From: Laetmonice hystrix
Lineage: Eukaryota
Direction: 5' to 3'
Length of the DNA: 64,000 nt
NCBI GenBank assembly: GCA_965235115.1
Contig: OZ249436.1
Coordinates: 36,644,001 to 36,708,000 of the forward strand
Below are positions 2,660 to 41,338 of the stretch, one piece after another. The notes under the pieces were generated by a model, which was not told where the DNA came from, searched no databases, and worked only from the letters and a program-made list of their open reading frames with translations. Within the stretch, counting starts at the first letter, position 1. The number at the start of each line of letters is the position of its first letter. The position numbers and the translations under genes were made by a program.

Positions 2660-2846
2660 GAGTAAAGAGGCGGGACATGGTAGACCGTTTTAGGTCTTAT
2701 TGGCGTTTTCAGAGGACGCAGTGTCTACAGATGACATAGGGTGTTTACAGAAAACAATGTTTACAGATAACAATCAGCCCGTACAGAATAGGAGATGACG
2801 TTTGTATATCACCGTTAGGATAAAGACAGGTGTTGGTTAAGGTGCT

Positions 2847-15185: not shown

Positions 15186-15358
15186 GGGTACGGATGTTGG
15201 ATGGGGACGTTACGGATGCCGTAGAGGCACAGTCTCTCAGCCTCAACCCGCAGCATATCGACATCTACAGCGCCTCCTGGGGTCCTGATGACGACGGTCG
15301 GACTGTCGACGGGCCAGCCGTGCTCGCCAAGCGAGCCTTCCTGCAGGGAATTACCAAG
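15186..15358 (+). CDS. FURIN: Furin-like proprotein convertase, catalytic-domain exon
   Basis: ttcag|..VRMLDGDVTDAVEAQSLSLNPQHIDIYSASWGPDDDGRTVDGP..ITK|gtattt; 173 bp. Confidence 0.95.
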
Positions 15359-15653
15359 GTATTTAATGGTCACCTACCGTGGCACGTTTATTGGCCGGGG
15401 AGGGTAGGGGTGTCACCTACACCAGATACTGAGATAAGATCGTAGGGAGTTACAGAAAGGTGATTAAAAGTAAGCTGTCATTATGGCAGTCACCGCTCGC
15501 ACTCCTCTGTCCATTACTCAGCCATTATGCCATCAGATGAATTTTAGATTGTATTAGGAGCCATTACTGATAAATGATTCCGTAACGGCGACAATCCAGC
15601 GGCGAAAGTCTGCCTGATCCTCATGTTAAAGTTAAGCGTCTCTCAAACTTCAG

Positions 15654-15866
15654 GGGAGAGGCGGGAAAGGCTCGGTTTTCGTCTGGGCCTCGGGTAACGG
15701 AGGCCGGGACGGCGACTCGTGTAACTGTGATGGCTACACGAACAGTATCTACACTCTGTCCATCTCGAGCGCCACTGAGAATGGTAACATACCGTGGTAC
15801 TCGGAGGCCTGCTCGTCTACACTGGCCACTACCTACAGTAGTGGTTCTGGCGGCGAGAGACAAATC
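15654..15866 (+). CDS. FURIN: Furin-like exon (oxyanion-hole Asn)
   Basis: cag|[34 protein letters not shown]...ERQI|gtgagt; 213 bp. Confidence 0.95.
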
Positions 15867-16053
15867 GTGAGTATAACTCGCACGCAATCCTCATTGATGC
15901 CAACCCAGCCTGCCACTATTTGTCAAGGTCGTTCTTGTGCTGATGTAAATGGGAGTTTTTAGACAATCGTCGGTGTAACTGATGAAGCCCAAAAGAGTAA
16001 AACAGAATACAATTGACGAGATGTTAATCCAAATGTCTGAAAATGCATTCCAG

Positions 16054-16154
16054 GTGACAACTGATCTACGGAAGGGGTGCACGGAGACACATACGGGCAC
16101 CTCTGCTTCAGCGCCCCTGGCGGCAGGAATTTGTGCATTGGCACTACAGTCAAA
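16054..16154 (+). CDS. FURIN: Furin-like exon (catalytic Ser)
   Basis: cag|[33 protein letters not shown]|gtaagt; 101 bp. Confidence 0.95.
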
Positions 16155-16651
16155 GTAAGTCTCGAAGGCGGTGTATGAAAAGGAGGTATTCGGGGAGCAT
16201 TCTGGCATGCTGGTGTTAGAAATTAAGTACGGTAACTGAGGAGTCGTTTTAGTGATTAATGACATGAGATTAAGTATTTAAAAGAGAGGCCTCTCATATG
16301 CCAGATCAGACAGATTAGGCGATTGGGAAAAGAAATGTTGAAAATGTGACTGATCTTTCTGCACTTGAGCTCTTCATTTTGTAACCAGCAGTATGCCGCC
16401 AGTCGGCAGCACCAACTTGCTTTGGGCCATGGATCAATCTTAATACAATTTTTCTATAAATAAATCTGTTACTGGCTACAAAAATGCAGGTATTCTGGAA
16501 TGTGTATGTAAAAGATTAACTTTGGTAATGGTCCTCTATGCATCAACACGTAGCTATGCACTGAATGACAAAATAGAGACACAAAAATGATCGGTCAGAA
16601 AGGTCGGTATAGCCTGGAGGTGTGATTTACATGTGTGTGAATGTGCTTCAG

Positions 16652-16755
16652 GATGGATATGACATGGCGTGACATGCAGCACATAGTCGTCATGACTGCT
16701 CGACTTGGTAACCTCAAGGCGTCTGACTGGGTCACCAACGGCGTCGGTAGAAGAG
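16652..16755 (+). CDS. FURIN: Furin-like exon
   Basis: cag|(K)MDMTWRDMQHIVVMTARLGNLKASDWVTNGVGRR|gttagt; 104 bp. Confidence 0.93.
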
Positions 16756-17407
16756 GTTAGTCACCGTCTTACCGCCCGGCACGCGTTTTATATCTGACTT
16801 TTACAACAACTGTCGGTATGGAATACAGAGTAGCAAGTAGCAAGAGACGAATTGGTTTTCTGTCAAAGAAATGATAGAAGTTTGCTTGTTTTTTAAGATC
16901 GCTGAAGGCCCCAAGGTGTCTTGAGTCTATGTACATGTAGTTTGCTTGCTTAGTGAGTTGTACGAGACAACCTTGTGGAAACCAGACGTTTAGAAACACA
17001 TTGAAGGTGTTGTGTGTGAGAACTTAGGAAGACAAATCACTTTCACCACCAGTCGATGTAACCAGACATGTTCACGTACAGTGTACAACGGTGTGCATAA
17101 TTCATATCGTCTCTGATTTTGCACTGATTACACCTTGAGTTTTATGTAGTGTTTGGAATTGCAATGAATTCTGCCATTTGACGGATAGTTTTTGGCTCAT
17201 TATGTCTACTTGCATCAATCATTAATTATAATTTGATAATAATTGTGTCGATGCAGATTTCTAGAAAGTGCACAATGTTGGGGTCATACAATTTCTCATT
17301 AAGTAGTAAGACGAGTGACCGAGTACAGAGTGAAATATACTGGATGTATCTGACTGCTTTGACCTTACATCTACGTAATAAATGATCCACTCGATGCTTT
17401 CTTACAG

Positions 17408-17525
17408 TGAGTCACTCGTTTGGTTATGGCCTCATGGATGCTACAGCTATGGTGGAGCTGGGCCGTAACTGGACAAATGTGCCTGAACAGCACAAGTGTA
17501 CGATCAAGTACCAAGGACCAGCAAG
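17408..17525 (+). CDS. FURIN: Furin-like exon
   Basis: cag|(V)SHSFGYGLMDATAMVELGRNWTNVPEQHKC..|gtcagt; 118 bp. Confidence 0.93.
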
Positions 17526-17798
17526 GTCAGTATGTCGTCCTTGATATGCAAGCCGCAACATTCCATGATTCCTGCTGAGAAAAAATACAGCTTGCTCTTT
17601 CCATGGAGCCCTATTATCAACCTGCAATCCGTTTTTTAAGTCTCTATATAATTATATAATGTTTAGTTCAAGATGTTATATATATTAGTCAGCAAATCTC
17701 AACACAAATTTCCTTTGGTATACGTAAGGTGTGTTTAACTCTTTAAACTTCTAAGAACATTGAAAATTTGAACATGCTATCCTTGTATGTTATTGCAG

Positions 17799-18103
17799 GA
17801 CGATACCGTTGCGGAGTAAAATCAAGGTTTATCTAGACAGCGACGGCTGCCAGTACTCGCCCAAGAACAAGGTTATATATTTGGAACACGTGCAGGCGTA
17901 TATAACTCTGTCATCAAGTCGGAGGGGTGAGGTACAAATCTTCCTTACGTCCCCACACGGCACCAAATCAACCCTACTCCAGCGACGAGCTCGGGACACG
18001 TCGACGGAGGGTTTCAGTGACTGGGCCTTCATGACTACACACAACTGGGGCGAGACGTCCAAGGGTCGCTGGACCCTTACCATAGAGAATGGCGACAGTC
18101 GCT
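17799..18103 (+). CDS. FURIN: Furin-like P-domain exon
   Basis: cag|TIPLRSK..LEHVQ..RRGEVQIFLTSP.GT..WAFMTTHNWGE..GRWTLTIENGDSR|gtaagt; 305 bp, ends in phase 1. Confidence 0.93.
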
Positions 18104-19231
18104 GTAAGTATCAACATCCCACCTCATCACACGTAGTCGATATCTTAAATGTAATGTCCAGATTGACGATGTGTCGGGTTAAACTTGCTATAAACTGAAT
18201 GAATCTTTCAGTCAAAGTGCAGAGACATTTTTACACTTTTCGACAAATCTTTTTAAACTTTTGCACCAGGATAATGCTTCAGTTGCCACTGGAGACTTAG
18301 TGATGGCAAAAAGGTCCAACTAAACAGTAGGCTGTACGCTTACACGTAGCGCCATTCCACCTTTCCACATGACTAGCGAGTTAGTCATGTGGAGATCATT
18401 ATATTTTTATCCTTGACAGCTTAGACGACTAAAGCAAACATCTTCCATGCACCAAGCCCTTAACCATTGAAGCTGGTTTTAGATGGTGTTTAATTACATA
18501 TGGACGGGCTGAAATTCAACTGCCAGAAGGTAGACTGCGGGTGGTGGTTTGAGGCCACTGTTATCTGCTGTTGTGACACAAGGTGGCGCCACTAAGCAGA
18601 TTCGAATGCCACCTGGCGGTGACGTGGTTCCTGTACGAAACCCGTCGGGGTTGTCTGGGTGGGCGTCCCATCGCGCGTTCAGTGTAGCTTTGCCGACAAG
18701 TCCTCTTCATTTAGCACGCACCAAAGGCTGCTGCTCCTACACCTGTCACTCTATCACAATGTCGCTGAACACAGCTTTGCCAACAAATACAACACTTGAG
18801 GAAAATTGATTTGAAAACTCTGGGATGCAATCTGTCTCCCAGAAATGGGCAGTGTAGCTCTTTAGGTGACGGCGAAGTAATGAAGCTCGAATCGAAACAG
18901 AAATCTTTATGTCATGTTTTGTCAGTAACAGTAATACAACTCCAAGGAACACACAAAAATGAAAAAATAAATCGGGAGGGAGCTTAGGATGCTGACTGTA
19001 TCAAGGCATCGGGGTCGGAAATCTGATGGTTAAAAATGTCTTTTGGTGTGATTGATGTAGTTGAAGATTTTGTAGATACCTTGAAGTGTTGGCATTGGTG
19101 TGCTAGTTGATACAGTTGTGTGCTGACTTGTGCCAAATCAAACTTTGTAGCCGTGTGCCTGATGCCCTGGTGTGAGGAACCTTTGGGCTGGGTTGACTAC
19201 TAACGTGTTGTGTTTCTCTGCCTTTTTTCAG

Positions 19232-19632
19232 TCGGCCCTGCTCGCTTGCGAGATTGGAGCCTTGTCATGTATGGCACAGATCGCCATCCATACAACCCCA
19301 CCACCACTACCACAACCACCACCACTACCACCACCACAACCCCAAAACCCACCACCACCCTGTCCAATCACCACCTTCGCTCTGCCCATAGAGGGCGTTA
19401 CCGCCCGACCCGACCCCCACGCGCCAAAAGTTTGCCCTCCGCACGCGTCGTCAAAATGGGGCCGTGTAAACGGCCCACAACCCCGATCTTTCTGCCCACC
19501 ATTAAACTGGTCACCCAGTCCCGTACAACCAGTGCTGTAACAACTAGCACTGCGACCACGCTGAGACCCTCCTCTACGTCCACAGGCAAGACTTACCCCC
19601 CTTTCTTAGTCCTAAGTGAGCCCTGGCTATAG
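19232..19632 (+). CDS. FURIN: Furin alternative exon A: end of P domain + Thr/Pro-rich mucin-like tail (possible internal GC donor after 19585)
   Basis: ttttttcag| phase-1 acceptor; GPARLRDWSLVMYGTDRHP then poly-Thr; stop at 19632. Confidence 0.82.
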
Positions 19633-21262
19633 CCTACCTCAGCCGATATGGGGTGTTCGTCAGGATACAACGGGGCCACTACTCCTCTGAAAATGGCCAG
19701 GCCAGGCAGCAACAAGTGACGGTGTTTTTAAATTTGGGGACAATTGGCTTTTGATTTGGCGGTCAGCTCCAAAACAAATGTAATGAAATATTTCGAATTG
19801 ATCAGGATAAAAATCTTGAAATGGAATTGATTTTTTTTTTTCACTTTGGTGTGTGCCATCGATCAGACAACAAAATTGAGTGCCCACTTCCTTTTTTTAG
19901 GAGATTTTTCGAAAGAAATTTCTTGAATTGACAATGTTGTCAAACCTTGGAGCCACGTTGGCACGCCATAACCCGGTTTCTATGGGAATGGAGTGAAGAA
20001 TTTTCAAGTTGCTGCCACAAGCCTGGTCAGGGTGAAGTGGTGGCCTGCGATGATATGCTGCAAGTGTTGCATGTTTCAACTGACTGCATGAATGTCTCGC
20101 TTACTGCTAACAACCCCAACCCAAACTGTATGCAAAAACTAACCCTAAACAATGTGAGTCTGCTCAGTCGAGGACTTTTGGCTGACCAGGCCTCTGAATG
20201 CATGGGAATGATACATGCCTTGACCGCTCCATGTTGGAGGAGCTATGGCGGGCACCTGTTGTAGCATGCGGCAAACTTTCGGGCATGTCACAATGGTGGG
20301 AATCCTATAGGGGGCGCCACAAGGACTCCTCGAAAAGCGCTCATTGATTTCCAGTTTGAATATGATTCCTTTTTTGAGATGAACTTTGTATCATTTCCTC
20401 ACAACTTGATATAGTTTTGTCTAACATTTAGGTCATCTAGGTTCAACTCCTGTTTGTCTTGACATGCCATATTAAATATACTCTCTAAACCCTATTCTTG
20501 GAGATGGCCGATTTGATGAAGGTATCAGTATTTTACCTCAGTTATACTTAGGAGGTAGCATGTCATCAGTATCAAATGTGAAATATTGTTTTTCCTCTGT
20601 ATCTCTTTTTTCACTTGCCATTCACATATTACTGTACAAGACCACATTTCTTTTCTCATATTATACCTCCTAAAATTAACTTATTTTATCCTGAACGGAT
20701 ATTTGGCTCTGATTTTACTCTTACCTAGTTGTCTTCAGGATAAAATGGTTAACTCCATGTTGACCCTCCCACCAGTGGCCATGCTGCCCATGTGCATGTC
20801 AAGTGTTGTAACCACACGCTAGGTGGAGCCGCAAGCATGTATAGTTTCTCATTTGACCTCCAGGTGATAGATGAACGATGGGCCAATGGTGCACACTAAT
20901 AGATGACATTTTGCCTTCTTTGTTTAATGTGGATTTCAGTGCTTTGCAGAGCCGTATGGACGTCGTGTGCATGTTTTGTCACTTGGTGATTATGTTCCAG
21001 TGGTAGTCGTCGAGTCAGTGTCCGTGTGCTAGCCGTGTGTTGTCAGAAACGCCGTGTATCGATAGAGTCGGCATTGTCAAGTCATTCATTCATTCATTCA
21101 TTCACAGTTCAGTTTGCGTGACATGGAAGCTAGAGAGTTACCTGTATAACAAATACTAAAAAAACAGTTTTGGCAAAGGGGCCTACGTATTGCTGCTTCT
21201 TGCAACCTTTCTCAATAAATTCTTGCTTTTAATGTTAGGACATCCCACTCTGTTTCGATACT

Positions 21263-21724
21263 TCTAATATCTCCCCGAAAGCTTTGAGCCAGTCTTAGAC
21301 GTTAGTCTGGTCTAATATCTCACCGAAAGCTTTGAGCCAGTCTTAGACTTGAGTTAGTCTGGTCTAATATCTCACCGAACGCTTTGAGCCAGTCTTAGAC
21401 TTGAGTTAGTCTGATCTAATATCTTACCGAACGCTTTGAGCCAGTCTTAGACTTGAGTTAGTCTGATCTAATATCTTACCGAACGCTTTGAGCCAGTCTT
21501 AGACTCGAGTTAGTCTGGTCTAATATCTCACCGAACGCTTTGAGCCAGTCTTAGACTTGAGTTAGTCTGATCTAATATCTTACCGAACGCTTTGAGCCAG
21601 TCTTAGACTTGAGTTAGTCTGATCTAATATCTTACCGAACGCTTTGAGCCAGTCTTAGACTTGAGTTAGTCTGGTCTAATATCTCACCGAACGCTTTGAG
21701 CCAGTCTTAGACTTGGGTCAGTCT
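21263..21724. repeat. 52-bp tandem repeat (about 9 copies)
   Basis: TCTAATATCTCACCGAACGCTTTGAGCCAGTCTTAGACTTGAGTTAGTCTGG; units start at 21311, 21363, 21415... Confidence 0.95.
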
Positions 21725-22615
21725 AATGTGTCTATTGTGACAGATCAGGGTTTCGGAGATAACGATAATGTGTGGTAGGCTCGTGGTAGGCTCATCTAAT
21801 AAACAGAACAATCTGGTATTTACGTTGATTGGCATGTTGTGTTTACAATTTTTATTAAAGTTATGGGAATTGGTACTGCAGAATGAGAGCTCACATGTAG
21901 TAGCAGTACTTCACTGATATGCCAGTGTTCTTACTGGGATATCATAAACCAAAATAGCCATTATATACATTTAAGGAAATAACGTTAAAAAAAGTCCAAA
22001 TTACTCGGCTGCCTCGGAGTTTATCATCTGAACTTAAGGATGGGAACTGAAAAAACAACTATATGTATGATCACTAAACATATTTTGCAGCTAATATCGA
22101 TAAAAAAAAATCCTGGTTTACCCGGACTTTGCTTTAGATCCGAACGTTTCTTGATGTTTGTGCTGTACAGTACAGTTGTACATTTAAGGTTGTCGTTAAT
22201 GATGCAGCATGCAGTGTTTGCTCTATTACATGTCAGCTATATGTTGTACTAGATGTTTTGTCTATTTTATGATTAATTCCTTTTAGAGCCAGTATAGAAA
22301 TAACTCCAGTAAAAAAGGGGAAGGCATACGTATATTTTTCCAGTAATAAACTAACTTCAATCTTAAACAATTGCCTTCAGATATAATAAAAATCTGTAGT
22401 TATTCACATTGCATTTCGTATGGTTGTTTACTTATAGACTACCTCTAACAGTTTATAATATAGCACCTGTTCCCAGCGTAACCGACTGGCGGTGTAGTTT
22501 TGCTCTCTGTGAATGGAAAGCCTGAATTAACGGATGCGTCGACTTGATGTGGACATTTGTTGCTGATTGATTGTTATTCGTGTCTGACCATTGTCTTGGT
22601 TTGGTTGTCTTACAG

Positions 22616-22854
22616 CCCACCTGCAGGCGTGGTCTCTGGTCATGTACGGGACGGCGACTCATCCCCAGGCGGGGGTCAAGCACCAGCCAGGTCAGGCGGG
22701 CGGCCACTCCAAGACGCCAGGTATGCCCCCCGAGTATGCGAGCGCTGCCGTGCCCAGCACCGCCTCGCCAACCACACTGGTGGTTGTTGTCACACTGCTA
22801 GTGACTAGCTGGCTAGGCGCACACCTAGCCCCTCCCTCACCTCCCTTATCATGA
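22616..22854 (+). CDS. FURIN: Furin alternative exon B: end of P domain + hydrophobic C-terminus (internal donor after 22720)
   Basis: tcttacag| phase-1 acceptor; HLQAWSLVMYGTATHP; CAG|GTATGC phase-1 donor at 22720; read-through gives TLVVVVTLLVTSWLGAHLAPPSPPLS*. Confidence 0.85.
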
Positions 22855-24867
22855 TAGTCCATCACCATTGGTCCAGCTCTTATTGATCGCAGCACATCTT
22901 GGCAGTGTGCCACACTGCCACCAGGTGGCGCCCACGTTGACAGTTGGCTCGGTCCGGAGACCATGATTTCCCCTACTTGATAAACAGCTGCTGCCGTCTG
23001 GAGCCAGGGAACGGAACTAGAAGCGCTTGGCCCTGCCTTCACATTCCAGCGGCGGCGGCGGCGGTAAGGACGGCGGCTGGAGGTGGTGGCAGTCACAGGG
23101 GCTTGGCCGCCATGTGACGGCTGCGGCGAGTCGGCCAAGGGTTGACTCTGTGCACCGCCAGGGGGAGCTGTTGAACTGAGCTGGGTGGGATGTGTGTGAT
23201 GAACTTACCTAACTGTGATGTCCAAGCTAAGTGACCGGGGAGGTGTGGCGGGGTGGCGCGCACCACTAGCCGTACTGTGGCGGCGGCAGGTCGAGCCACA
23301 GCCCGCAGGTAAACCACCCAGGTCGGGCGGCCGGCCGGGGGTCTCCTTCATATTTCACGGCAGCCAGCGGCACACCATGCCTCCAACTCGATGACCCCAG
23401 GTCATGGTCAGTTGAAGGTCATCATCATTGTGTCGTAGATGTCAACTCATCAGGTCGACTGACCTTGTCTTTGGAGGTCACCAGTGCTGTACGGATTCAT
23501 GTCGATGATGTTTTATTTTTCTTTCTTTTTTTTGTTTTTGTTTTTGTTTGAGGGGGGGGGGGGACGGGAGGGAGGGGGGTAGTAGTAATAATAATGTCAC
23601 AGGGGCATGGTATGTGGCTGGTGTGTTGGCGTACTCGGATTGTAAGGTGGTTGCTAGGTACTATAGATATATTATGCACATAAATAAATTATTTAACATG
23701 ATGACGTATGTGTATATAGCGCCCGATGTGATGTGTTTGGGACGGGATGTGAGGGTTTTAATGGTGCAGGGTACAAGATACACACAAGCATTGTTGCTTT
23801 TTCTCACATTAACTGTTCATGGCTTGCTGTTCTCAACACAAGGTAAGAAAAGTCGATATGCATTTATACCCAAAATGTGCCTTGTGGCGGGTTGTAAGCC
23901 TGGCCTCCCCATTCACTAGCTTTGGATGGTAAATGGACCGGTTGCTAGGGGCCCGGACCGTGGCTACGGTGAATGGACCGGTTGCTAGGGGCCCGGACCG
24001 TGTATCTGCGAGCCGTAGTGCTGGGGGGACCAGTGCTGGACAACCAGTACCAGGTTACAAGAACTGGGGACGACAGTTATGTGCAGAACTGATTGGTTTG
24101 GTACCAGTCGGGCTACTGAGGACAAAAAGGAGCGCAAAGCTCCAGGCTACTCTCAGTTAACCCGTAGAATTTCACATTCACAGTTTAGCAAATGAACCAA
24201 TTGCATTTTTTTTATGTCACTCATGCTAATGATGAATAATGTTTCATTTTATTGATAGATATTGATCATAGAACGTGTAACAGTTCTATGATATTGATAA
24301 ACAAGCGTGTCTCTGTGATGACATGCATTGATAATCTACCACCCCGGGGTACAGTTGTAGATACCCGAGGGTTATATTATGCTGGTATTTTGAAAGAAGG
24401 TCAACTACTTGTTTTTGTTCGTAAGGACTTCAAAATGTGGGTAGACCTTGATGTAGAGTGTAGGACCTAAGAATAAGATGCACACGATACGTATGTGTAA
24501 GTTGTTTGCGTCCGTTCAGTCAGTGTAAAAATGTCAAGTCGAGTGTATGGGCTAACTGCCTCTGGGAATATAGAACTCGGAGGGGACACATGGCGAGGTG
24601 CTTGGTAGACAAGGTGCTGCCATCTGGAGGCGACCCTGCCCCTGTCCAAGTCTGCCAGATATTACTCAACGATAACGAGTTCTCATGCCTTTAACGGTGG
24701 AGTTGAAAGATCGCTTTTCATAAAGTTCTTCGGCAAAATAATGTCAGAACTGTGGGATCATGATAAGATATTTCTGACAAGTAAATAAGGAACCCTCTGG
24801 GGTCAGATGAAAATAGCTAGTAACAAACATTTTTTTGAAAAAAAAGATTCCCACAAACGGTTTTTAA

Positions 24868-25004
24868 ATGTGTGAAAGGTTTGTCAGTCAGTTCCCGAAG
24901 GTTTCGTCCACCAAGAAAAACTGACTTTCATCATCATCTTCACCGCCGTGGTATGACCCTGGCTGTTGCAAGGCGTAAAACCCCAAATACCCACCCACCC
25001 ACCC
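24868..25004 (+). mobile_element. Truncated SINE-like retroposon
   Basis: Ends in a (CCCA)n simple-repeat tail; flanked by an imperfect duplication CCCA(C/T)AAACGGTTT; body resembles mollusc-type SINE 3' ends (from memory). Confidence 0.5.
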
Positions 25005-28000
25005 ATAAACGGTTTAAAAGTGAATTGCAGGAGCAAGCAAGTACCCAAAGATTAAATATACGTTTTTCTCCATTTTCTCAGAAAGTCTCAAATGTTATTT
25101 ACTAGCTATTTCCATTTGACGCTAGCACTAACTTTATCTAGAAAAAGGTGTCATATTATCATGCAGGGATAAGAACACTTTTTAACCCCAAAGACTCTTA
25201 CAAACTCTCCTATTATTTATTTCAAAGCCTAGGAAGGCATTACAGTGACAAGTTTTATCAGAAATTCTCCCACGTTAAATGCCGAGTTTACAGCATATTT
25301 ATACAATGAATAAGACTGACACATGGCTTAGACTTACAGTAATCTTAGTTGAGATTTCCCATGTACATGTAGAGTGTTTCTCATTTTTGCTGGTTGTGTA
25401 TGTTTTGGGGAATATGTTGTTAATTGAATGTGTATATGATATAGTCTACATGAAAATACCTACCGAGGAAAAATGCGTAAAACCAGAGATTAGATTCTAC
25501 CTTGGATCCCCTGGATATAGAATCAGTACCGTATTTGTCCCGTGGACGTGGACTTAACACTGTCCTGTGGATACAGAATCAAAGTATCAAAACATTTGTG
25601 AGTGATAGAGAGAGAGGAAATCAAAATGTTTTCAGAGTAGCTGATCACCAAGATACATAGCAACACTTTAAAAAAAAACCTCATAAAGGGGAAATAATTA
25701 TATAAATAATTTATGTAGGGATCTAACTGATTCATAGCGTTTATTTCATAAAGCTCAGTTACAAAATAGATTGACTCATGAAATATTGTTATTAATATAT
25801 ACAGGTATATATAGTAAACCTTATACATGTATTTATACAAATACACCATACGCACCTGCCCAATTCTGATCACGTGGAATTAATTATTTTAATAATTAAG
25901 TTATGAGTTGATAATGCTGAACCCAAAGAGATAGATGCCACTTTTGCCAGTGAACTAAATGGACGTAACTTCAACTTAGTCAAGGAAGCTCATTGACAAT
26001 GGTGAATATATTAGGTTGATACCGGTATTTATATTTTTCATAGCTTTAATATTCAGTTATTGTAGTGCTGTTAAGAATCCTTTGTGAAATTTCAAAGAAA
26101 ACTCGTGCTATTTCCTGGAGAAGTGATTTTACAATAGCAAAGGTGACTAAAATATTCTGTAGGTAAATAGCTATGCAAGATTTTAACCCATTTTCTGATT
26201 CCATCACTAATGTAAACTCTACGAGGAGGACGAGATTGAGTTGTTTACCTTCTTCATTATTGTATGCATCTCTAACGGCAGCTGAGACTTGCGAGTACTA
26301 GATACCCTAAGAGAACGATTTATCAGCCTCTGGTTCCTTTTAAGCTTTCGGATGTTTCAATTTTGCTAAATGATTTTAGCACTTTAGTTATCACAAATGA
26401 CATGTAGTATACTATACTTTTCAACAGAGAAACACATCATTCCTGAATGGCTATAGCAAATTTTACTTCATTTTGGAGACACTGTATATTTATAATCCGG
26501 TGCATTTTGACAGCCAATGTTGAATTAGATGGGTAGTTTTGTTGGTTAATATTTATATATGTTTCTGTTCAAATCGCAACAAAGTCAGATGTGCCCGATG
26601 GATTATTACACAGACTGTAGGAGTTTTAACAGGAATTTATACGTTTCAATTAATTCAGAAAATCTGTGCATTCAAGAAAAGGTATATCATATTAACATGG
26701 CTGGTTTTATGGTTTTATTTTATGAATCGCGTGCCAAAAGAAAGTTGTTAACAGGCTTGGCCATCTCAAAATAGTGATGCCTTAACTTAATGATGCTCAC
26801 ACAAAATAAATATCCTCACGCTGAACCGACCCCCCATCCCCCCTCGATATAGCAGAACAGGGCACTTTATTGACAGCTGGAAGAAAAAAATTGTTTTTGT
26901 CTGTCTGTGATAGATCTCACAATTGCATCACAAAGTAGACCAGAGCAAGGCAGAGTTGCTGTGACATACTATACATTATTGATAATCACTGGCAGTAATA
27001 ATCACGGTAGAAATATGGATCTGTATCCGTTGAGTGGCTTTGTTGTAAAGACTACGGTATTTAAAAAGTCCACAAATTATGTTTTTGACATTCATATTTA
27101 AGACTAGTCAGTATCGCCTGCTTAATATGAAAATGAAAAATGCATGTTGAACGTTTCAGGACCAGTAGTAACTTATCGAGTTCTGTAATACTCAATGAAG
27201 CAGAATTTTCGGAAGCGATTGATGTTGAGTTAAACATCCTTGTTAAGCTGTTTCCGCACAGGAAGCCAAGTTTGTAGTATTCGGTCGTATTAACCTGATG
27301 ACCTGTTAAATGCTGCAGTCATGATACTCTTAGATATACCCACGTTAAACGGTTTAAACGGATAGATGTATCGGCCTGTCAATGAGGTGATCAGGCACCT
27401 CATCTCCTTGAGCTGCATGTGGAGACAATAGGAGACAATAGTTTCACATCACACCAGTCAGTTTGTAATCGTAGCGTAGGATAACTACAATTTGACGTCA
27501 GAGAACTCGCACTGGTGTTTGAGAGAAATTAAGCACTTAGAAAATCTGTTTCATTATTTTGTTTGATTGTTATTTTCTTCTCTTCTTTTTTTTCTTCTTC
27601 TTTCTTAACTTTTTTTTCTCTGCCAGATAGTTCTGGAGTTAACATCTATACGAATTGAATCTGCAGCAAGTATTCATTAAACTGTTGGGGGTAATTTCAT
27701 TTACTCATCTGTCTCAGGTAACGTGAATCAGTACAGACACATGAATACAGGTTTCTGGGCCCCAGGGTGCAGCATCAATGATGTTTTCTCCCACACCCGG
27801 GCCCAGACGCCATCTGTCGTCACTATGTCAGTGCCAGTGTTGTCTTCAGTGCTTTCCGTATAGACATCCTAATTGTGCTGTTTGAAAATCATTCGTGTCA
27901 GATGCGTGTTGAATGTGACCAGCGCTTATGCATATCGCCACCTCCCAATCTGCCAAATGGGAGAATGGTTATTTATAAAGGTCAGACGGTTCATCTCGAC

Positions 28001-28314
28001 CTTTTAATAAGTCCTGACTTTAAGCCACATTGAGTCTCAGTTCTTTCCGAAAATCATGCACAACACATTTTGTCGTAGAAACATATACCAAATGGTGAGT
28101 ATTAAGTCTTCTACTGACAAATACGACAGGGGTATTCCACATTTCCAGTTAAAAGAAACATCGCCAAAGTCATTAGGCATTTATTGTTATTTAAACCAGA
28201 AGATATCTTCATTTGCCTATACTGCGGTACAAAGTACATAAGTTCTTAACCAAATCTATACTGTCATCATAATCTGGCCGGCTCAAAGTCGTTTTCACCC
28301 ACCAACAAGGACAA

Positions 28315-28426
28315 AACGAAACCAAGCTAATGTGTATCATGTTACGAGAGAAGTAACGAAACCAAGCCAATGTGTATCATGTTACGAAGGAAGTAACGAA
28401 ACCAAGCTCATGTGTATCATGTTACG
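28315..28426. repeat. About 40-bp tandem repeat x3
   Basis: AACGAAACCAAGCTAATGTGTATCATGTTACGA repeated. Confidence 0.85.
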
Positions 28427-31400
28427 AAAAAAGACATGTCAACTGTCAGTAAGATTAGAACTAACCAAACCAGTATTGAACGATATGGGCCATTGTATCA
28501 AATAGTCCCATGCATTTCACTAAAGTCGTATGTTGAAAGCTTAGGGGGCGTGGGCCCTGACTATAGGAGTGACTGGTATCAAGAATCAATTGTTGGTGAG
28601 TGACCTGTTGTATGGCACCTTGACCATTGCCAAATACAGTGGGACGCGCTTAAGCCACTACTGGTACATAAAAGGGATTCTCAAAAGTGGCACTTGGTAA
28701 AAAACGCATTTAGGAAATGGTCATTGTAAAGAGCTACATGAATTGAAACGTAAAATTGTTTTAAAATTCTTAAAGGGGCTTTCGCCGTGTTACATTGAAT
28801 CTGAAACATTCCAATTCACTTTCGATCCAAGCAAGATAGATACGCCTAGTACATGTATATAATGATGGTGGTGCTAAGGCACTGGCCAAATGTAACAACA
28901 TTTTACATTGATTTTGCTATTTCGAAAGCGCTCAATTGTGTATTAGCTGTGGTTTCTATGACGTGGGCGTCCCCGACCCTTGACGTCATCACATGCGAGG
29001 CCGAGGGTGTCCGCTGTACCATAGCCAGTATTAGTGTCACAAACGCCAAGAACTGTGGAGCTATATTCAGTCGCCTTGAAAATGTCCCTTGTCCGCACAT
29101 TTGCCTAGATTCCAACGAAACGCTGAGGTTTGCGGGAGTTTTGAGTGCAAACGTTTCTGATTGACGTTTCTCGGGATGAGAAGTACGTGTCAGCAGGCAG
29201 GGTGGATGGTTGGAAGCATCCGTCTGTAATCTGACCTAATAACCACGTACACACTGACATTGTACTCTATTTCTCGACATATGGTGGTAATATTTCCTTG
29301 TATTAAATGTCCCAGTGATAGATTGAATGAAGGTTGAGTGCCTTATGCTCACTTCATGTTCTTTATGCTGGGGTCATTTGAGACATTTGGGACAGTTGAA
29401 AGGCCATTTATCGCTCTTCCTTTTGAAGATCTTAAAATGAAGATTGCCAGTATATTATATATATATTTATATATATTAAAATGTATGTAAATATATGTAC
29501 AATCATAGTCAGTATATACATTATAAAGTGTACTCGCTGCAATGATACCAGGATTGATTTCCACTGTGTAAAGATATATCCATATGTTTGAGATGTATGT
29601 TAAGCCGATTCAGGATCAAAATGTAACAACCTTCTGCCGCTGTAGTTGGGGCACAACTCGGTCCTTCAGGAGGTATTTGTAGTAAATTCAAAATACTGCT
29701 AGTGAATCCCTACCAAAGAGTTTAATTCAGTCCAAGTGTTTCTTGTTTATCAAATCGTGCAGAAAACGAAAGTGTCGGATTTGGGCAGTTTCTTTCCACA
29801 CCATGGAAAAGAAGACATCAATTGGCGTGGAGTTGTTACGGGCTTTTTAGAGTCGGCGACCATTTTGTAGAGGGCAGTCAAGGTCGTAGGGACCGTCCTC
29901 GTTATGTGGTGTATTCGCACTGTCTTTGTCCAATGTAATATCAGTGTTCACTTTTGTATATCTTAGCGAAGTCCAGACAGAAGGAAAATTGTTTCTCGTA
30001 GCCTTTTGTGAACAGCCTTGTGTGTTACCCCAAGGCCCACTCGGTACATGATTGAAAGATGGGTGCACAGATAATTCATTGTGTCTAAAAAGTATGTAAG
30101 ATGATTTTGGTGTGTCATTAAAATCTTTATTTGTATATAAAAGAGCAGTCCATATTTGTTGTCTACTTCTTTTAGCGTAGTATACTGATAGCAGTCGGAG
30201 AACGCAACGTAGAGGTTTTAATCAGACAAGGATCATGAATTTTCCTAATGATTTGTTGGTTTCTTCTATGGTTTTATATACAGACAGTAATATACTACAC
30301 TAAATAGATTACCGGTAGTACGTACACAGTAATGTCCTCTCCTGCTGCCATGCATAGATTTGTTTCATGACTTATTTCTTTTATGGATCTTCACCTTTTG
30401 CACCTGAACATTACTTTCTCTTATTTGTATTGAGCTCAGCTCTTGGACTTTTTTCTTCTTTAGAGTACCACGGAGCTGCTCCACAATTTTGGTTTATGTC
30501 AAATCCGTGTTTGTCTTTCCTGTGTGCTTGCCTATCTTCTTCGCTTCCTTAATTAAACTGTAATTTTTTTTGACAATGGAAAAATGCCAAAAGAAAATAC
30601 CGTATCTTGGTATATCAAAGGGTTTCGAAAACGTTTGTTCTATAAACCTGTAGCCATGCGCTTATTGCAGCAGCAAAAATGTGAATTCCCTGAGCTTTGC
30701 CAAGCGCGACTCCCCTCCTATGAGTGTGTATAGCAGTCTTTTTGTGCAGGAATTTAGAATGAAATCAAGTTTTGTAATGTAAGACGAATGGATGATCTAA
30801 TGAAGGTTGGTTGTAACATTATACCGGTATGTAAAAGTTTTCTAAGCTAACCCACCACTGATTGCTTAATAAGAAAAACGTCTGTACAGGAACCATTCTC
30901 CCCATTCCCCTCCAACCATCACTTGCAGATTTGCAATACTGACTAGATTCTACAACGTTAGGCACTTTGATCACATACTGTAGTAAGGAGTGCACCATAG
31001 ATATATTATCACACGTAGACACTGCCAAACACTCGCTTTGTAAGTTGAGTAAGATTCCTCCTCCACGGCCCCTTTCTCTTTCTTCTGGGATATCTACGTC
31101 AGAGGTTTGGTCGGTTTTCACGATTCAGTTTAGGTGGGAATAAGTGCGTGAGATATATTCTATAATAAACATTGTTATATTGATGTACCCCGACTCACAC
31201 TTTGTTCTTTGTACACCAGTAATTGTTCCCTACTCAGTCAGCTAGGTTGTTCCCGGTCAGTCCCTGTTGCCACGCCAACCTGGGGAAGCCTCCCTCAGGA
31301 AAGCTAGTCGCTATAGCAACAAGAACAGTCGGGTGCCGGGTGAGTGGCGGAGGCCCATGCTCTTCAGTTCTGGATTTCGTTGCTGCTTCTCTCGGACTTG

Positions 31401-33011
31401 TAGACACGCTAGGACGTACCTTTTGCATGATCCCCAATGGTTTCTTTTACACAATCATTCAGGTTCCACAAAATCTAACACCCGTAGTAGATACCACTAA
31501 TCGTGCTCTGTGTACCCTCTCGTATTTAGTTGGTCATGGTAGGTTGAGTTCGGAGTGCTTAGTGGATTTTACTCCCATCCTTTAAAAAAAAATCTTTCTT
31601 TAGTTCTCTGCACTTATGGTAGCTTCTTCCTTGGATGCTTTGCGAGTTAACGCATGGAAACGGGCCACTGCAGGGGTCCCTGCAGAAAAAATCAGTGTTG
31701 AAGGACATTACGTGTAAATTCATGATCTTTGTATTATTATATTTTGTCTTCTACCGGTAAATGTGGATATTTTAATGACGCACCATTTGCACTGCATAAG
31801 TTGCATCTGTATGATCCACAGTGAGTTTGGTTTCCCGAGTGGCTTTAGACTCGGTTGATGCATGTTGTCTTAACCAGCATAGAACTCCCCAGTTTATGTG
31901 TATATACCACGCCCTTGGCTTCTTATCAGTGCTGTCAGAAACAGTATAAGGGTATCGTCATAAGATGGTACAGGTTTGGTGCCATGTTACATGGTGTAGG
32001 TACTTGAACCTACCAAAGCAACCTCCAAGCAGACCATAGCTTAAGAAAAGCTAAACCTTGGAAGTTTGTCTGTACAAATTATGCAAGGTACGGAACGTGT
32101 AGGCTCGCTGGCCAACTCGAGCAGTGTATTATTTAGTGCATTATTTAGTGCTACCATTTTTGCCAAGATCCTTAGATGACATAAATAAGGATGATACCTA
32201 ACGAAAGGAGACGTAGACATTTTGGTGTTATTGGGATTGGTTTTTCTCTTGAAGATAAAAATCCAGCAAGCAAAAGTTGTGGCTGGCCCTTTGCTTGGGG
32301 GATGCAGGAAAAAATATTTTGGGAACAATGCATTTTTGATTTGTACTGATATGCCATGTTACTAAAAATATGAGATCAAAGGGGAACACTTGATGAACCT
32401 CTTTGTATTGTCACTGTTTGGCATAAAACCTTGGTTTTAGAGATTACTATAATAACTGCATTGTAACAATGCATTATGAATTAACGTATATGATAAATCG
32501 ATCGTTTCAGATGTACAATTTCTTGTTATCGTTCGGTTTGTTTATGTTAAATCCAGATGAAAGGCTCATACCCTTACTGTAGGCTGTAGGCACCATAGGT
32601 AGCCTGTGTTGTAGCTTTGTAATAGAGAAATGCTCTTCTTTTCTGTAGTGGTTCATAGTCACTGTTTTCTACACTAACTGTTCTATTTCGACGAAGTATT
32701 GTCAAGTGTATGATCCATGTATCGGAGTTACAGTGTTTATTTTGCCAACCTGCTATATACAAATATTATTTGCAAGCCCCTATTTGATTGAGATTGATGC
32801 CTGAGTTAATGTCTTTTTACGCACACTATCGTATTTATTTCTGATAAATATAAGGTTTTAACTTGTAATTAATTTAAGGTTAAATGTAGGCCAAGCTCTG
32901 CTTTTAGAAGACTTGGGCGTATCGTTGTCGAATGGATGTGGAATTAATTATCATGGATTTCTGTTTGAAATTGTTTCACTGAATTTGTGCTTTTCATCTC
33001 TTTTTGGACAG

Positions 33012-33604
33012 TTTGCAAAGCAGGGGAGTATTTGCTGCAGGACTTCTGCTATAAAAAGTGTCCGCAGAGCTTCTACGACAGCAGTCGGAACACGACAAAC
33101 GTTGAGGGACCCCAGGACAATGGGACAGGTACGCTACAACTCGTCTGTGAACAGTGCCATGTCGAGTGCACCCGGTGTTTCGGCCCAGCCCATAACGAGT
33201 GCTTGGCCTGTGCCAATGGCTTCCAGCACGACACTCAGCGGTTTCTATGTGAGAGGGAGGAGACGTCATCCGGGCCCTACAGTCCCAAAAGTTTCATGTG
33301 GCTTCCAGTTGTGGTAGCTATTGGAATACTCATTGCGTTAGCTGCGAGCGTTGGAACTTTTCTGTTCCTGCAAGCCAGAGACAGTGGATGTAGGCGAAAG
33401 CAGGTCAAGTACATTGATCTAGGTAAGAATAGGTTCAGTGCTATTAATAAATATAGTGGTATCAAGCTAGGCCCTCAGAAGACGAGCCTGCTGGCCTCTG
33501 AAAGTGAAGAGAGCGTGGAGGAAGATGAAGAGGTTGAGTTGGGAACTGGAGGGCGGGGATTGTCACGGCTAGACGACCAACTAGTGATGGACAATACATT
33601 CTGA
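33012..33604 (+). CDS. FURIN: Furin terminal exon: Cys-rich region, transmembrane helix, cytoplasmic tail
   Basis: Phase-1 acceptor; CYKKCP..CEQCHVECTRCFGPAHNECLAC (furin-like repeat); TM WLPVVVAIGILIALAASVGTFLFL; YIDL/YSGI, LL and acidic SESEESVEEDEE motifs. Confidence 0.92.
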
Positions 33605-36600
33605 CAACTGGCGTTACGTGATATTTGAATGTGTCACCTCTATCTGTGATGATCAGTATTCCTTTGTTAACACTTGGGACAAACTCTTAAAGATCATGAC
33701 ATTGCATGTATACATAGTGGTATTGCCGAGGCACCGTACACTCATCACCATAGCAATAATCTTCGAACGTGTAACGTAGTTACGTGACCGAAGTGATCGT
33801 AGGACATAGAGTCGTTACGTGCTTTCAGAAGGGGGATCTGTGGGTGAAGGTTGTATATATGTAAAGTTCACAAAATGGTAACGTTCGAAACTTTTATTCT
33901 TATGTGTGCAAGATTACGAGGCTGATAAAAATGGTTGAAAAAGAGTACTTAAGAAAATTGTTCTATACTCTACAAACAATATTCTAGATGTTAGATAAAG
34001 CAGCAAGGTGTGGTTGAGCCACCCATTGGACGGTTAACAAGAAGAATGTTTAATTGATGAGAAAATGAAAGGATGTTGTCAATTTTAATGTGGTATGAAC
34101 TAACATAACCTGTAGCCGCCCCTCATTCTTGGCTTTCCCTTTTTAAAAAACCCTGTACCAACAGGATTTGCATATTAACCACCTCAGTGTGCCTGAATGT
34201 GGGTCTCTGTAGGCCTACCATATTGGTTGGCCTTGCGGCAGGTTCCTATGTCCAGCAATAGACTATAGTATATACCGGTAAGTGGCGTCGAGTCGCCACA
34301 TCTCCAAGAGGCCAGTGTATAGACCTCTACCACAGCACCGTTATCACATATTGGAGGGTTAAATCAACACATTGTAGACTATTATACTTGCAGAATTTAC
34401 ACAGGTATTATAACTAGTTGACTGAAGCAGTATGTATACTTGTATTTAGGCATTCCCAATTTGAAGAGTGAATATTATGTATTTAGTACATGTAGATCAT
34501 ACTCTGGTCTATGTTTTATGTAGGATTGTCTTCTGAGTGGTTCTGACCTCATCGTTAAGATGGCAAACTTCAACACGCTCACTATACACATACGCTGAAC
34601 TATACACACAAGCTGAACTTTACGCACATTTACGGCATGTTTCAGCTACAATGTACATGTAGTGGTAAATACCAACAGATCACCCAGCAGATTGATCTCA
34701 TTGTCAGAATCACAGAACTACACTAAAGTTTAGTGTGGTTCTCTGGTCAGAATGAACCGTATCTTCAATCTATATACTATTAACGAGATCTTTGTTGTTT
34801 CTAAGGTAATAGTTATGAGTATGCCACTGAAAATATCCATAAAGGCATTAATCTTGGACATCATTTTGAGCTGTGTTGGTAGGAATTGGAGCTGCGAGAT
34901 GTTTGGCAATTACTGATATCTTTGTCTAGTAACCAGAAACTCTTGCCAAACAGTGATTGTGACATATGCGCGTAGTTATTAAAGCGAATCCTGTTCTGTC
35001 CAGATAAATATGTATATTGATTATATTTTTGTAAAATGTGTAGGAGATGGGACTGCTGAGAGAGAAACTACTCCAATAACAAAGTGAGACGGGAATACCG
35101 TAAAGTGAAACAGTTCCTGTTAACCCAGTGGTTTTACAAGTCATGTAATAGAATATAAAACAACTTTATAAACGTGTACATCCTTTAGGGGGCGACAAGT
35201 AAAATACATGAAACAAAGGGCAATTATATGTACATGGAAACGAATCTTACGTGCTATAAATCCAGTAGGGCAGCCTCCAGGGAAAAAGTCATGCTATAGG
35301 TAAAGTTCGATTTTGCTACTTTCACGTGTGCTTTCAGAAAATAGTTATCCTGACGGGTAGCAGTAGGAAGACTAGTCAAGTGGTCGTGCGGTATGACGTT
35401 TACTTAAAAAAACGGTCGCCCGATTCTTTGGAGCCGGTACACCCAAAGCTGGACTTTTAAGTCTAAGTTTTAGTCCCTCCAGTTGGAGGAAGTAACTCTC
35501 CAGAATGAGACCATCACTTTAATAAGTTGTCCAAACCAAAGTTACTACCACCGTTGCTCGATGTGACGAGGCCTTGCGCCAGGTGCCGGTCAAAATAAAA
35601 ATGCCATTTTAAAAGCACCAAGGTTTCCACGTTGAATGAGCGGAGGAATTTTACCTTCAAGATTTGATGTGAAGGCAAGCTTGAAAAGTGGTCAAAAGAA
35701 GTACACGAAGGCCTATTGCGCCCTTGGATATTCTGACTGGCTGAAGCAGCAGAGAATGAACACAGATTAAAAACCAGGAGAACATAGTATTTGTGGGCAT
35801 TAAACATCGTTAGCAAGATTTCAGGCTAGATGTAGCTAGATGTACACTGTAAATTAAGGTTAGCAAGAAATACCTCTGAAAGTTCTAATCACGGGCATCT
35901 GCTGGAGGCAGAGGGGCGCCCCTGGTTACTGAGAACAATTGGTTACTGCCCCCCCCCCCCACCTTACAACTAGTTTTGGGCCCTATCCATGCCTCCAGTT
36001 CCAAAAAAGGTAACAGAAGTGTTTTATCTTTTGATTTTGTCTTGTACTTGTACCGAGGTATGCCACTCGACTTGTACTCTTTAAAACTACCGTTTGCTAG
36101 GATATAGGTGGTAGGCCTAAGTACAAGAGAAAATCTAAAATGAATTATCAGAATATATTTGTCTATTGTTGGTACAGTAGTCGTGGCTGCTGGTTGAGGT
36201 GCGTTGGCCCGTGTGAACATGAACAATTCCCAAGTGTACAAATTATTATGTCTCACAAGAATAAAATCTCAAATCACAATCAAATCAAATGTATTCGAGT
36301 TTTGTTGTATAATTATATTCGAGTTTCTGCCGGTCTTTCTTTCTTTGGTAACACCAAATTATTTTGTTCATTTCAAGCAAGGGTATGTTGTGGTCTGGTG
36401 GTAGGCCGAGGTCTGTTGTTCGATCTATGTCATTTTTTTCTGGTGAGGGGATCTATATTAACAAAGGGGGCCATAACCACCAAAAAGTCTTGGTTCAATT
36501 TGAGCTTTCCCAGAACATAGCTTCTATCTAACTAATATCAGGATGACCACAGCAAAGGGGAAACGGACCCCGAATATTCCCTGCAGGTAAATCGTAGGGA

Positions 36601-37903
36601 GTTTGTTTTTAAAATCTCAAAAACGGAAAAAAATAACGTCGACAGCCAGAAAAAAAATGCTCTCGGGCATCTATAGTTGGATGAAATAATGGCGATCTGA
36701 TTCAAGATGACCGACTGGTCGCCATAGATAATGAAAACAATTAGCAGCCATATATCATGTACATGTATAAGATCACAGGGACAATTTATCACGGGGCAAG
36801 ATAAACGTGGTGGGCGCTAGTTAGGAGGGGGGGGGGGAGGGTTACTTTCGTCGCGTGAATGGCCAACTTCCTCAATTATTTTACGTAATGCGTGACAGGA
36901 TCATTCCGCATGAAGCGTGATCCATGAAAATAATTTGATGTGATTCGTGATTAACTACCTTATTTTAAGTGAATTGTGAATTCAACGTCAAAGATCGTGA
37001 ATTCTTGACATGACAACCAGATTCGTCTAAAACGAAATGACTGTAAATATTATGTCATTCGGTGAAATCGTGTCAACTGAGAGGTGGGGCTGGTACGGAC
37101 TGGCTAGCTTGGGCTTTACCTAGCCTATATCGGGTGGGCCCCAAAAAACCAAACTGGAATACTCTTTTCTTGACTGTAACTTCTATAATTTTTATTCCAA
37201 TGTCATAAAAAATACATTTGGTTATTTGGGGCATGTGGTACAAATTTCAAATAAATAGGTAAAAACGTATAAAAATAGTGCCATTTTAGAATCTGCATGC
37301 CGGACCACTGGCTGAGCACAGAAAACGGGCGTAAGGGTAGGCCTACGTCCGACGTATCGCAGTCACAAAGTAAAGTTATGCCGAGTGCATAAAATGGGCG
37401 CAGAATAAGTTGGGTCGTAAAAAAGTCACGCCTGTGAGGTAGGAGGAGGCCGTAGCAGCGGAGTATCTTCCACGAGCACAACAGAATTTAATATGGTTGG
37501 AATCGCACACTGGTTCTACGACGGACGTAGTAAGTTGCGCCTGAATTCCTCTAAGATCTCGTGTGGAACGTGGAAAGTACAGGAGAATCCCTTTTCCGAT
37601 AAGTAGGCCAGTCGGAGTCTAGGTAATGCCCGATGCACACTACACCACTTGCTAAGACGCGATAGTTGAGTTGCTATTTTCCCCGATTCCCGATTAAAGA
37701 CTGACACGTGCACACTACCCGACAGTTGTTGGGCCCAATTCATTTTTTGAATCATATATGACTCCCGGTTGCCGACTCGAAACCCGTTGTAACTTCGTCG
37801 TAATGCCCGGTGCACACTACAAGATTTTCAGTCAGGGATCAGCAATCTGAGCAGTCGCCGTTAACTTGAGGCTGACAGTCGTGTAGTGTGCACTGGGCAT
37901 AAA

Positions 37904-38282: not shown

Positions 38283-39549
38283 CATCACCCCCCCCCCCTC
38301 CCCCGATCACCTCGATGACGCTCGATTGGTAGCATTGAAGGGAATCACCAATACATCTCCCAGACGAGGCATCAAGCATCCAGATGCACGAGTCGACCAG
38401 CGATGGAGCTCAGCCAAGTACTCGGCTCTCCACCACTTCCATATGCTCTGAAGAATGGTTTGCCGATGTTTCCACCTGCCAATCAGTCCAGACACCGGTG
38501 GTGGATTTGAAGATAGGAGGAAGTCTGCCGGATGTAATGGATGAGGATCATCTCGGGAGTCAGACAGGTAAGTGATAGGTCGTCTGTTGATGGCGCTCTC
38601 TGTTTGAGGGACAAGAGTCCCCAGCTCTTCAAACGTGAGACTGGATCTTCCTAGGCAACGACGGAAGGCCACTTTGATTCTAGTGTCTCCCAGAAACCAC
38701 CCTACCAAGGTGAATGTTCTGGGATAGTGATCCATTTGACTGAGGGCAACTGCTGCCTGGCCTGAATGAAGGATTTTGCATTGTCACTGGCAATAAACTC
38801 GCAAGCTCCACGACGGCTTATAAAATGCCGAAAGGCGTTGATCACTGCCTCGGCCGACCCATCAGGAGTCACCTTGACATGTAGAGCACGCGTACTACAG
38901 CATGTGAAGAGCAGAATGTAGGCTTTGCCTTCCCTAACATAGAACGGTCCACAGAAATCAATCCCTGAGCCATTGAAGGATGGTTTCTCCGCTACTCTCC
39001 ATTCTGGGAGAGCTAATGGTATTTGCAAATAGTGTGGAACCTTGTGGCGTTTGCACATTCGACAATCCCGTAATATGCGTTTCACGGTCTGACGCCCCCT
39101 GAGAATCCAGTATGATGTACGAACCTCTGAGAGAGTCAGGGTAACTCCTGCATGGAACAGGTGTTCATGACAGTTCAAAACGATGAGATATGTCAGGTGC
39201 GAGTCAGGAGGAAGAATCACTGGAGTGGAAGGGCTCGCGCGACATGATCTCCCGAGTGAGACGAGTAGTCCATCTGGCCCTAGGGGAGATTTCAGTAGAG
39301 GAACGTATACTTGTCATATCTTCCTGGAAGTGCACTTCCTGGGTGTGTTTGATCCAATGGATCTTCGTTCGCTCAAATTCTTGAGGTGATGGAGTGGGTA
39401 CTTGGTGTCCACTAGACGTAGTTAGAATGCAATGTCCAGTGGGCAGACGGATTTTGGACACCCAGCACATGACATAAGCCGCAATGCGAAGAACAGGACC
39501 AAGTCCGCTCCTCTGGCGTCAAAGAGTCAAAGAGGGGCTCAGGTCAATG

Positions 39550-39817
39550 TTTGATGGGAGGTTCTGTAAGGCTCAGCTGCCAACTGCTTTATCAAAGGCC
39601 GGCCGTGTCACGATGCGTCTATGTGGAACGGCACGTTAAAGATTCCTTGGAATCTATCGATAAGAGTAGGGGTTCGCCCCGTTGCCGGGTTTCCTCCTAT
39701 CATCTCATCATTATCACCCAATGGATTTCACCGACTGAGTTAGTTACCTTGTTCTCGCCCTGAAATAGCTGAATTACTGCTGACTGGACGTTAAACACCA
39801 ACTACTCACTCACTCAC
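39550..39817 (+). mobile_element. 5'-truncated SINE-like insertion in the BEL element
   Basis: 3' end ...GAAATAGCTGAATTACTGCTGACTGGACGTTAAACACCAACTACTCACTCACTC with an (ACTC)n tail. Confidence 0.6.
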
Positions 39818-39823
39818 AGTAAA

Positions 39824-40940: not shown

Positions 40941-41338
40941 TTTAGGCTCAAGGTGCTAACTTTCTCACATCGTGTGAGGTGGAGGGCCACTATTGTTGTG
41001 AGATCCATTCAGGACCTTCCCACCAAAGTTTTGAGGAATTTGTTTTTTCCACAGTCAGATTTGCATGGGTGGCCAGGTCTGCAGGATTCTCGGGTATTCA
41101 CGTCGTGATCCCACGTCATCGGGGAGGCTAAAGTCTGGATCTCTCTGACACGACTTGTGATAAACACTTCGCTTTTGTTGTTGCTTTCCACTGGGGCTTT
41201 GATCCAGGCGATAGCGATGGCAGAGTCACTCCAACAGAAGTATGGTAGGTCGCTGTAGGCAGGGATTGCCTTTCCTACATGTGAAATGAGGCGTGCACCT
41301 ATGAGGCATCCTAAGAGTTCCAGTCGAGGTAGAGATAG

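Follow-up and report, generated by a model that had tools for sequence, protein, structure and literature searches.

We analyzed a 64 kb window (G000:C1:36644001-36708000) of a genome of 627 Mb; positions below count from the first base of this window. Its plus strand carries the 3′ portion of a convertase gene, and the earlier exons of the gene lie upstream of the window, where they were matched at G000:C1:36630928-36643041. Within the window, the gene consists of the following features.

15186-18103, plus strand: six common exons (tblastn; open frame of 337 residues; Pfam P_proprotein; RNA joints at two introns).
After 18103, plus strand: common donor, GCT/GTAAGT, phase 1.
19232-19585, plus strand: exon A, a candidate optional cassette (acceptor at 19232; homologous exon in the related loci L047 and L046).
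19583-19591, plus strand: non-canonical GC donor of exon A (CAG/GCAAGA after 19585; same donor in L047 and L046).
19586-19632, plus strand: read-through of A, 15 open codons (stop ends at 19632; not conserved in L047/L046).
22616-22720, plus strand: spliced part of exon B, with the second strand copy and a short linker (acceptor at 22616; donor CAG/GTATGC; tblastn).
22721-22854, plus strand: read-through of B, with small-residue sites, a polar spacer, a hydrophobic stretch and an uncharged end (heuristic; P0005 and other relatives).
22855-30140, plus strand: possible long 3′ UTR of a B read-through mRNA, as suggested by RNA contigs and ATTAAA at 30117.
33012-33604, plus strand: exon C, with a Cys-rich region, a transmembrane helix and a cytosolic tail (acceptor at 33012; stop ends at 33604; RNA contig).
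33605-36280, plus strand: 3′ UTR of the exon C forms, its likely end placed by AATAAA at 36260 and RNA contigs.

The motifs around the catalytic Ser and the oxyanion Asn were read in the translated exons of the window, and the Asp- and His-bearing exons were matched upstream at exon level (74-90% identity, no internal stop). The predicted protein would thus carry the Asp, His, Ser and oxyanion Asn of the catalytic domain of furin-like proprotein convertases (S8B). Two introns among the common exons are backed by spliced contigs from run X3, which we took as RNA solely because it shows these two joints; all three runs available come from one sample. The P domain was recognized by Pfam (PF01483, E 9.9e-25). 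The P-domain exon, though, ends short of the last beta strand, the strand that closes the domain in crystallised furin. In a run that included the relative P0005, the terminal strand aligned to this last strand, suggesting that the P domain is completed as in other S8B enzymes.

To place the gene, a tree of 24 rows was built, in which the transcript-encoded protein P0068 was the sister of the window gene (support 99/96). The gene fell outside the Fur2 rows (96/95) and outside the vertebrate furin/PCSK4 rows (96/88); the backbone of this tree was unsupported, and a clade of Fur1, KPC-1 and the spiralian sequences was not recovered. A quick tree of 40 rows, with P0160 left out, served for rough placement only and put the gene among annelids (support 86). 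Over the common exons, the gene is 69% identical to KPC-1, 64% to Fur1 and 55-59% to Fur2, and its named matches are mostly called "furin-like protease kpc-1". A separate gene in the same genome has a single strand and numerous Cys-rich repeats and is the likelier counterpart of bli-4/Fur2/PC5. The paralogue in this genome, at C1:61.56 Mb, has its one strand within the P exon, with no second copy in the 20 kb downstream. We take the window gene to be a Fur1/KPC-1-type convertase of an annelid-like animal, on grounds of sequence identity and the exclusion of other branches, not of a supported clade.

Other elements lie in and around the gene. At 416-3908 (plus strand), within an intron of the furin gene, a reverse-transcriptase ORF (PF00078; weak Dam-like match) is followed by a 356-residue ORF that had no Pfam match and that presumably encodes a tyrosine recombinase. 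With its near-identical ends, this is a DIRS-like retrotransposon. The A-B intron contains a nine-copy minisatellite with a 52-base unit (21263-21724, 95% matches), and the B-C intron a short element with 36-base inverted ends (24800-25125), a probable MITE, over which bin means of DNA-run depth exceed 100,000. Further downstream are the broken remains of an LTR retrotransposon with integrase matches (38700-45500, minus strand), which we take to be BEL/Pao-like, exons of a C2H2 zinc-finger gene (50781-54559, plus strand) and exons of a TPR protein (61837-62118, plus strand), which we assume resembles STUB1/CHIP.

A re-check of the sequence upheld all coordinates, phases and stops of the original prediction. 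Scanned for the last-strand motif, the plus strand of the window yields two matches over its 64 kb, one in A and one in B, and no third. Between the cores of the two copies, 10 of 15 residues are identical, yet no more than 27 of 45 bases, which indicates an old duplication. Exon A encodes 117 residues, of which 32 are T, 11 S, 14 P, 18 K/R and 2 D/E, while the cytosolic tail encoded by exon C bears a YxxL motif and an acidic cluster. Pfam gave no match in exons A, B or C and Rfam none in 18000-37000. With exon A alone as the query, 0 of 575 candidates were matched, an uninformative result for a low-complexity piece. All six exon combinations translate in frame with no internal stop. The A donor is also in frame with the B acceptor, making an A-to-B splice possible; the original prediction, right in seeing a combinatorial set of C-termini, had missed this splice.

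Next, the C-termini of 182 relative records were classified; these records are redundant and do not represent independent events. The largest classes were A joined to B and then to the transmembrane part (61), B joined to the transmembrane part (50) and B with a short hydrophobic end (33). A joined to B was followed by a hydrophobic end in one record and by another end in one more, and A without B led to the transmembrane part in two records and to a hydrophobic end in two. The others had B with a different end (7), had no strand (13) or were unparsed (12). The four main combinations of A, B and the two endings are therefore all found in relatives. A B-type exon was present in 154 of the 182 records. 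Both A and B exons occur in annelid, mollusc, brachiopod, nemertean and dipteran relatives, and the A-to-B join was found in bivalves, gastropods, Lingula, Lineus, Owenia and Paralvinella. Although many of these isoforms come from RefSeq prediction, the A-B-C tandem is likewise encoded by transcript-length Logan contigs of 2.8-5.2 kb (P0032-P0034, P0040).

Two relative sequences, P0005 and P0068, are identical up to the B donor and then diverge, the former into a hydrophobic end and the latter into the Cys-rich/transmembrane part. Past the donor, P0005 reads Gly-Met-Pro-Pro, as in the window, before its hydrophobic end. The canonical form and the hydrophobic-tailed B form are both seen in one relative, which bears out this part of the original prediction.

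At the genomic level, the locus L047 carries A and B in the same order, and the body of exon A can be aligned between the window and L047 with a score of 91, which 0 of 2000 shuffles reached. In L047, the corresponding position of B lacks a GT donor, and exon C was not found within 10 kb. In sixteen related annelid-like loci among L009-L050, the DNA covered shows one hydrophobic exon of B type but lacks A, indicating that A can be lost. A fifth arrangement was observed in two transcript proteins (P0162, P0348), which begin an A-type exon and go straight into a hydrophobic tail. In addition, annelid-like loci contain a second kpc-1-like copy (L062-L087); in its last exon, a basic site of RRRR type follows directly on the strand and precedes the hydrophobic tail, a possible self-shedding site.

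The non-canonical donor of exon A recurs in all three readable genomic A exons: CAG/GCAAGA in the window, CAG/GCAAGG in L047 and CAG/GCAAGA in L046, a bivalve-like locus. Annotated isoforms of Patella, Pomacea and Mercenaria join A to B at the position of the GC donor, while two gene models, Lottia P0107 and Pomacea P0072, run past it. Beyond the donor, the read-through sequences of the window, L047 and L046 have nothing in common. Moreover, 15 or more open codons follow 59% of 125 donor-like sites, so the length of the open frame is at chance level. The conserved donor, the unconserved tails and the chance-level frame together support the GC donor and oppose a selected soluble A form; the A read-through is probably intron rather than a selected C-terminus. 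That gene models can miss the GC donor matters for annotation.

From the frames and splice sites in the window and the forms seen in relatives, we infer that the gene operates a system of two choices, stalk or no stalk and transmembrane tail or short hydrophobic anchor, a model in which we have good confidence. The first choice would be whether exon A is included after the P-domain exon. When included, A would supply the last P-domain strand and a stalk of roughly 100 residues, Thr-rich, basic and probably O-glycosylated; it would then exit by its weak GC donor and join B, leaving the B copy of the strand spare. When A is skipped, B would supply the strand. The second choice would be made at the internal donor of B. 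Splicing to exon C would add the Cys-rich region, the transmembrane helix and a tail that may direct Golgi/endosome sorting, while read-through and polyadenylation in the intron would give a short hydrophobic anchor without a cytosolic tail. The four main products would be B-C, A-B-C, B-tail and A-B-tail. Judged by its conservation, we take the arrangement to be functional; its likely purpose would be to set the location of the protease and its reach from the membrane, rather than the choice of substrate.

We then asked which of the two strand copies closes the P domain when both are present. In an AlphaFold model of the Lingula protein with A, B and C in tandem (23 sequences), the A strand was predicted as beta at 558-570, in a block with pLDDT 76-88, and the B copy as coil, with pLDDT 30-38. 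The mean pLDDT of this model was 56.7, the catalytic domain was poorly modelled, and the underlying alignment may be biased towards whichever strand is nearer. The model suggests that A most likely completes the P domain when present and that the B copy is then spare.

RNA from this species gave a partial view of the 3′ region. The joints listed for run X3 include none into A, B or C. Exon A has no cover in X3, but the constitutive 17873-18103 and the spliced part of B are equally bare, so this gap says nothing about the use of A. Over exon C and its 3′ region, X3 contigs span 33011-35099, 35103-35308 and 35310-36246; this cover extends 2.6 kb past the exon and ends 14 bases before AATAAA. The first of these contigs starts at 33011, one base before the acceptor; had the assembly branched between the B donor and the intron, the start should lie at 33009. 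The observed start is possibly an assembly break.

Around the B read-through, a contig at 22742-22929 spans the B stop at a depth of 3.7, not above that of the scattered intronic contigs. The B-C intron also has RNA contigs at 28345-29880, which stop some 240 bases short of ATTAAA at 30117. A repeat origin for the RNA hump at 28.9-29.9 kb was ruled out, as 28900-29900 is single-copy in the genome. These contigs, which carry neither strand nor continuity, are possibly the long 3′ UTR of the B read-through mRNA, or the hump may be an independent or antisense transcript; similar low-depth contigs occur elsewhere in introns.

What kind of anchor would the B read-through provide? In the window, this tail has a hydrophobic stretch (13-residue mean of 2.55) followed by 12 uncharged residues, features that 62 of 20000 random frames matched in a home-made heuristic. 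The heuristic was passed by B of the window, B of L047 and most read-through relatives, including C. elegans KPC-1. P0300 and P0162 failed it, and insect tails extend 21-30 residues or more. GPI signals comprise a small omega site, a polar spacer and a C-terminal hydrophobic stretch, with no charged cytosolic tail. By these features, the B read-through would be a membrane-anchor signal, possibly of the GPI type.

We also considered whether this tail serves throughout protostomes, KPC-1 included, as a conserved GPI-anchor signal, an idea that we hold tentatively and rate a little short of probable. According to the available passages of Ramirez-Suarez and colleagues (PMC10546877), C. elegans KPC-1 requires membrane attachment via its short tail to function, and S675-S688 is a needed, putative transmembrane segment for which a foreign one can substitute. 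Rescue by a foreign transmembrane segment is compatible with either anchor type. The same passages describe a KPC-1::sfGFP reporter that is functional (PMC10546877) and that, if tagged at its C-terminus, would speak against GPI processing. The 14-residue putative transmembrane segment of KPC-1 has only four residues after it. We know of no GPI-anchored animal convertase, and none was found in our literature search. If the idea were true, one furin gene would toggle between two enzymes, one with a transmembrane segment and Golgi retrieval, the other lipid-anchored at the cell surface, with the length of the stalk set by an exon duplication that predates the insect/annelid split and by a GC donor kept from annelids to bivalves. 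Whether a furin is GPI-anchored would also matter for the action of KPC-1 at the surface of the dendrite.

The two-choice system has to be weighed against other readings of the locus. The original prediction treated A and B as mutually exclusive exons, each of which reads through or joins C, with a soluble mucin-tailed enzyme and an A-C enzyme among the main products. Both of these are in frame, and some records resemble them: Biomphalaria X4 (P0157) and Physella X3 (P0159) join A directly to the Cys-rich part, and an A read-through gene model exists in Gigantopelta (P0015). The A-B intron also contains AATAAA/ATTAAA sites and, near 21760-21830, an RNA contig with a depth of 5. However, A and B stand in tandem in 63 of the 182 relative records and A leads directly to the Cys-rich part in 2; together with the in-frame A-to-B splice of the window, this led us to reject mutually exclusive exons and speaks against an A-to-Cys-rich enzyme as a main form. 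The soluble form is doubtful in view of its unconserved tail and chance-level length, and the two A read-through records among the relatives end hydrophobic, not soluble. We therefore consider the exclusive model unlikely; the idea of a switch of C-termini on one catalytic core survives. It is less probable still that exon A is a silent or decaying relic in this species and that only B forms are made. The sixteen loci lacking A would fit such a loss, yet the acceptor of exon A is intact here and its frame open, and it retains the conserved GC donor and a body conserved against L047.

A further alternative concerns origin only and is compatible with the two-choice mechanism: the insect and spiralian duplications might be separate, and the likeness to dfurin1-X convergent. 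In its favour, like copies of the strand (A with A, B with B) group together among spiralians, in 45 of 56 annelid-mollusc pairs, but the same held for only 2 of 12 annelid-insect pairs, and nematode KPC-1, tardigrade and ostracod records have a single strand. Insects and spiralians nevertheless share the order of the copies, an A that starts 2-3 residues before B and a Ser/Thr-rich body after A. Moreover, Anopheles, Culicoides and Patella (X6) all place the B choice at one shared Cys-Ile junction, and insect-mollusc strand pairs lean positive (31 of 42). On balance, we find separate duplications rather unlikely.

This system closely resembles one known in flies and in the Fur1/vitellogenin convertase of mosquitoes. 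Roebroek in 1993 and De Bie in 1995 reportedly described dfurin1, dfurin1-X and dfurin1-CRR as products of alternative splicing in Drosophila. The -X form would be dfurin1 enlarged by some 377 inserted residues. Among dipteran proteins, those named furin-like protease 1 or vitellogenin convertase, which presumably correspond to these three forms, have an optional strand with a long Ser/Thr insert and then a second strand, which leads to a hydrophobic read-through or to a Cys-rich/transmembrane tail. All four combinations were found among them (P0300, P0346, P0274, P0308, P0314, P0302; P0302 at the B junction only). The optional strand-plus-Ser/Thr exon and the choice at B are thus the same in the window and in dipterans, while the insert has 118 residues here and about 330-510 in dipterans; this comparison rests on dipteran protein records other than Drosophila sequence, and the insect donor lies outside it. 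By analogy, the window gene probably has the same system as Drosophila Dfur1. The original prediction had cited Fur1 as a precedent, aptly, although the two are probably one system. The other precedent that it cited, bli-4, belongs to a different branch, which another gene of this genome matches better. Insect Fur1 is also treated in the available passages of PMC3014772 and PMC13063453.

Our literature search, with most subscription papers, the 1990s work on Aplysia/Lymnaea furin and Roebroek 1993 outside its reach, found no paper on the breadth of the duplication, the GC donor or a GPI tail. The mollusc, brachiopod and nemertean kpc-1 sets (Magallana X1-X8, Haliotis X1/X2, Lingula X1/X2, Lineus X2-X4) have the same A cassette and the same A-to-B and B-to-Cys-rich splices. 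Molluscs differ in their extra internal A donors and small extra exons, and in the B read-through, which is rare there (1 record, Patella X6) but common in annelid-like records. Present in relatives from four spiralian phyla and in Diptera, the layout is ordinary as a genome feature. It is a conserved system of known type, not peculiar to this genome; dipteran Fur1 shares the layout that the original prediction called notable.

Other convertases vary their C-termini in related ways. In bli-4 and vertebrate PC5A/B, alternative 3′ exons give forms with or without the Cys-rich and transmembrane parts (PMC10538796, PMC12266778, PMC2121096; for bli-4 isoforms, PMC12266778 and PMC10538796). These enzymes belong to a different convertase branch, and the available passages describe no duplicated P-domain strand. 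C. elegans KPC-1 is said in the passages available to have two splice variants, of which KPC-1B is the long one (PMC4169376). Its short hydrophobic tail is like the B read-through and, in the passages cited above, is needed for function (PMC10546877); its records have a single strand, and no Cys-rich form was found among them. We propose that one two-choice design would unite the dfurin1, -X and -CRR forms of the fly, the so far unexplained RefSeq isoforms of molluscs and the short tail of KPC-1.
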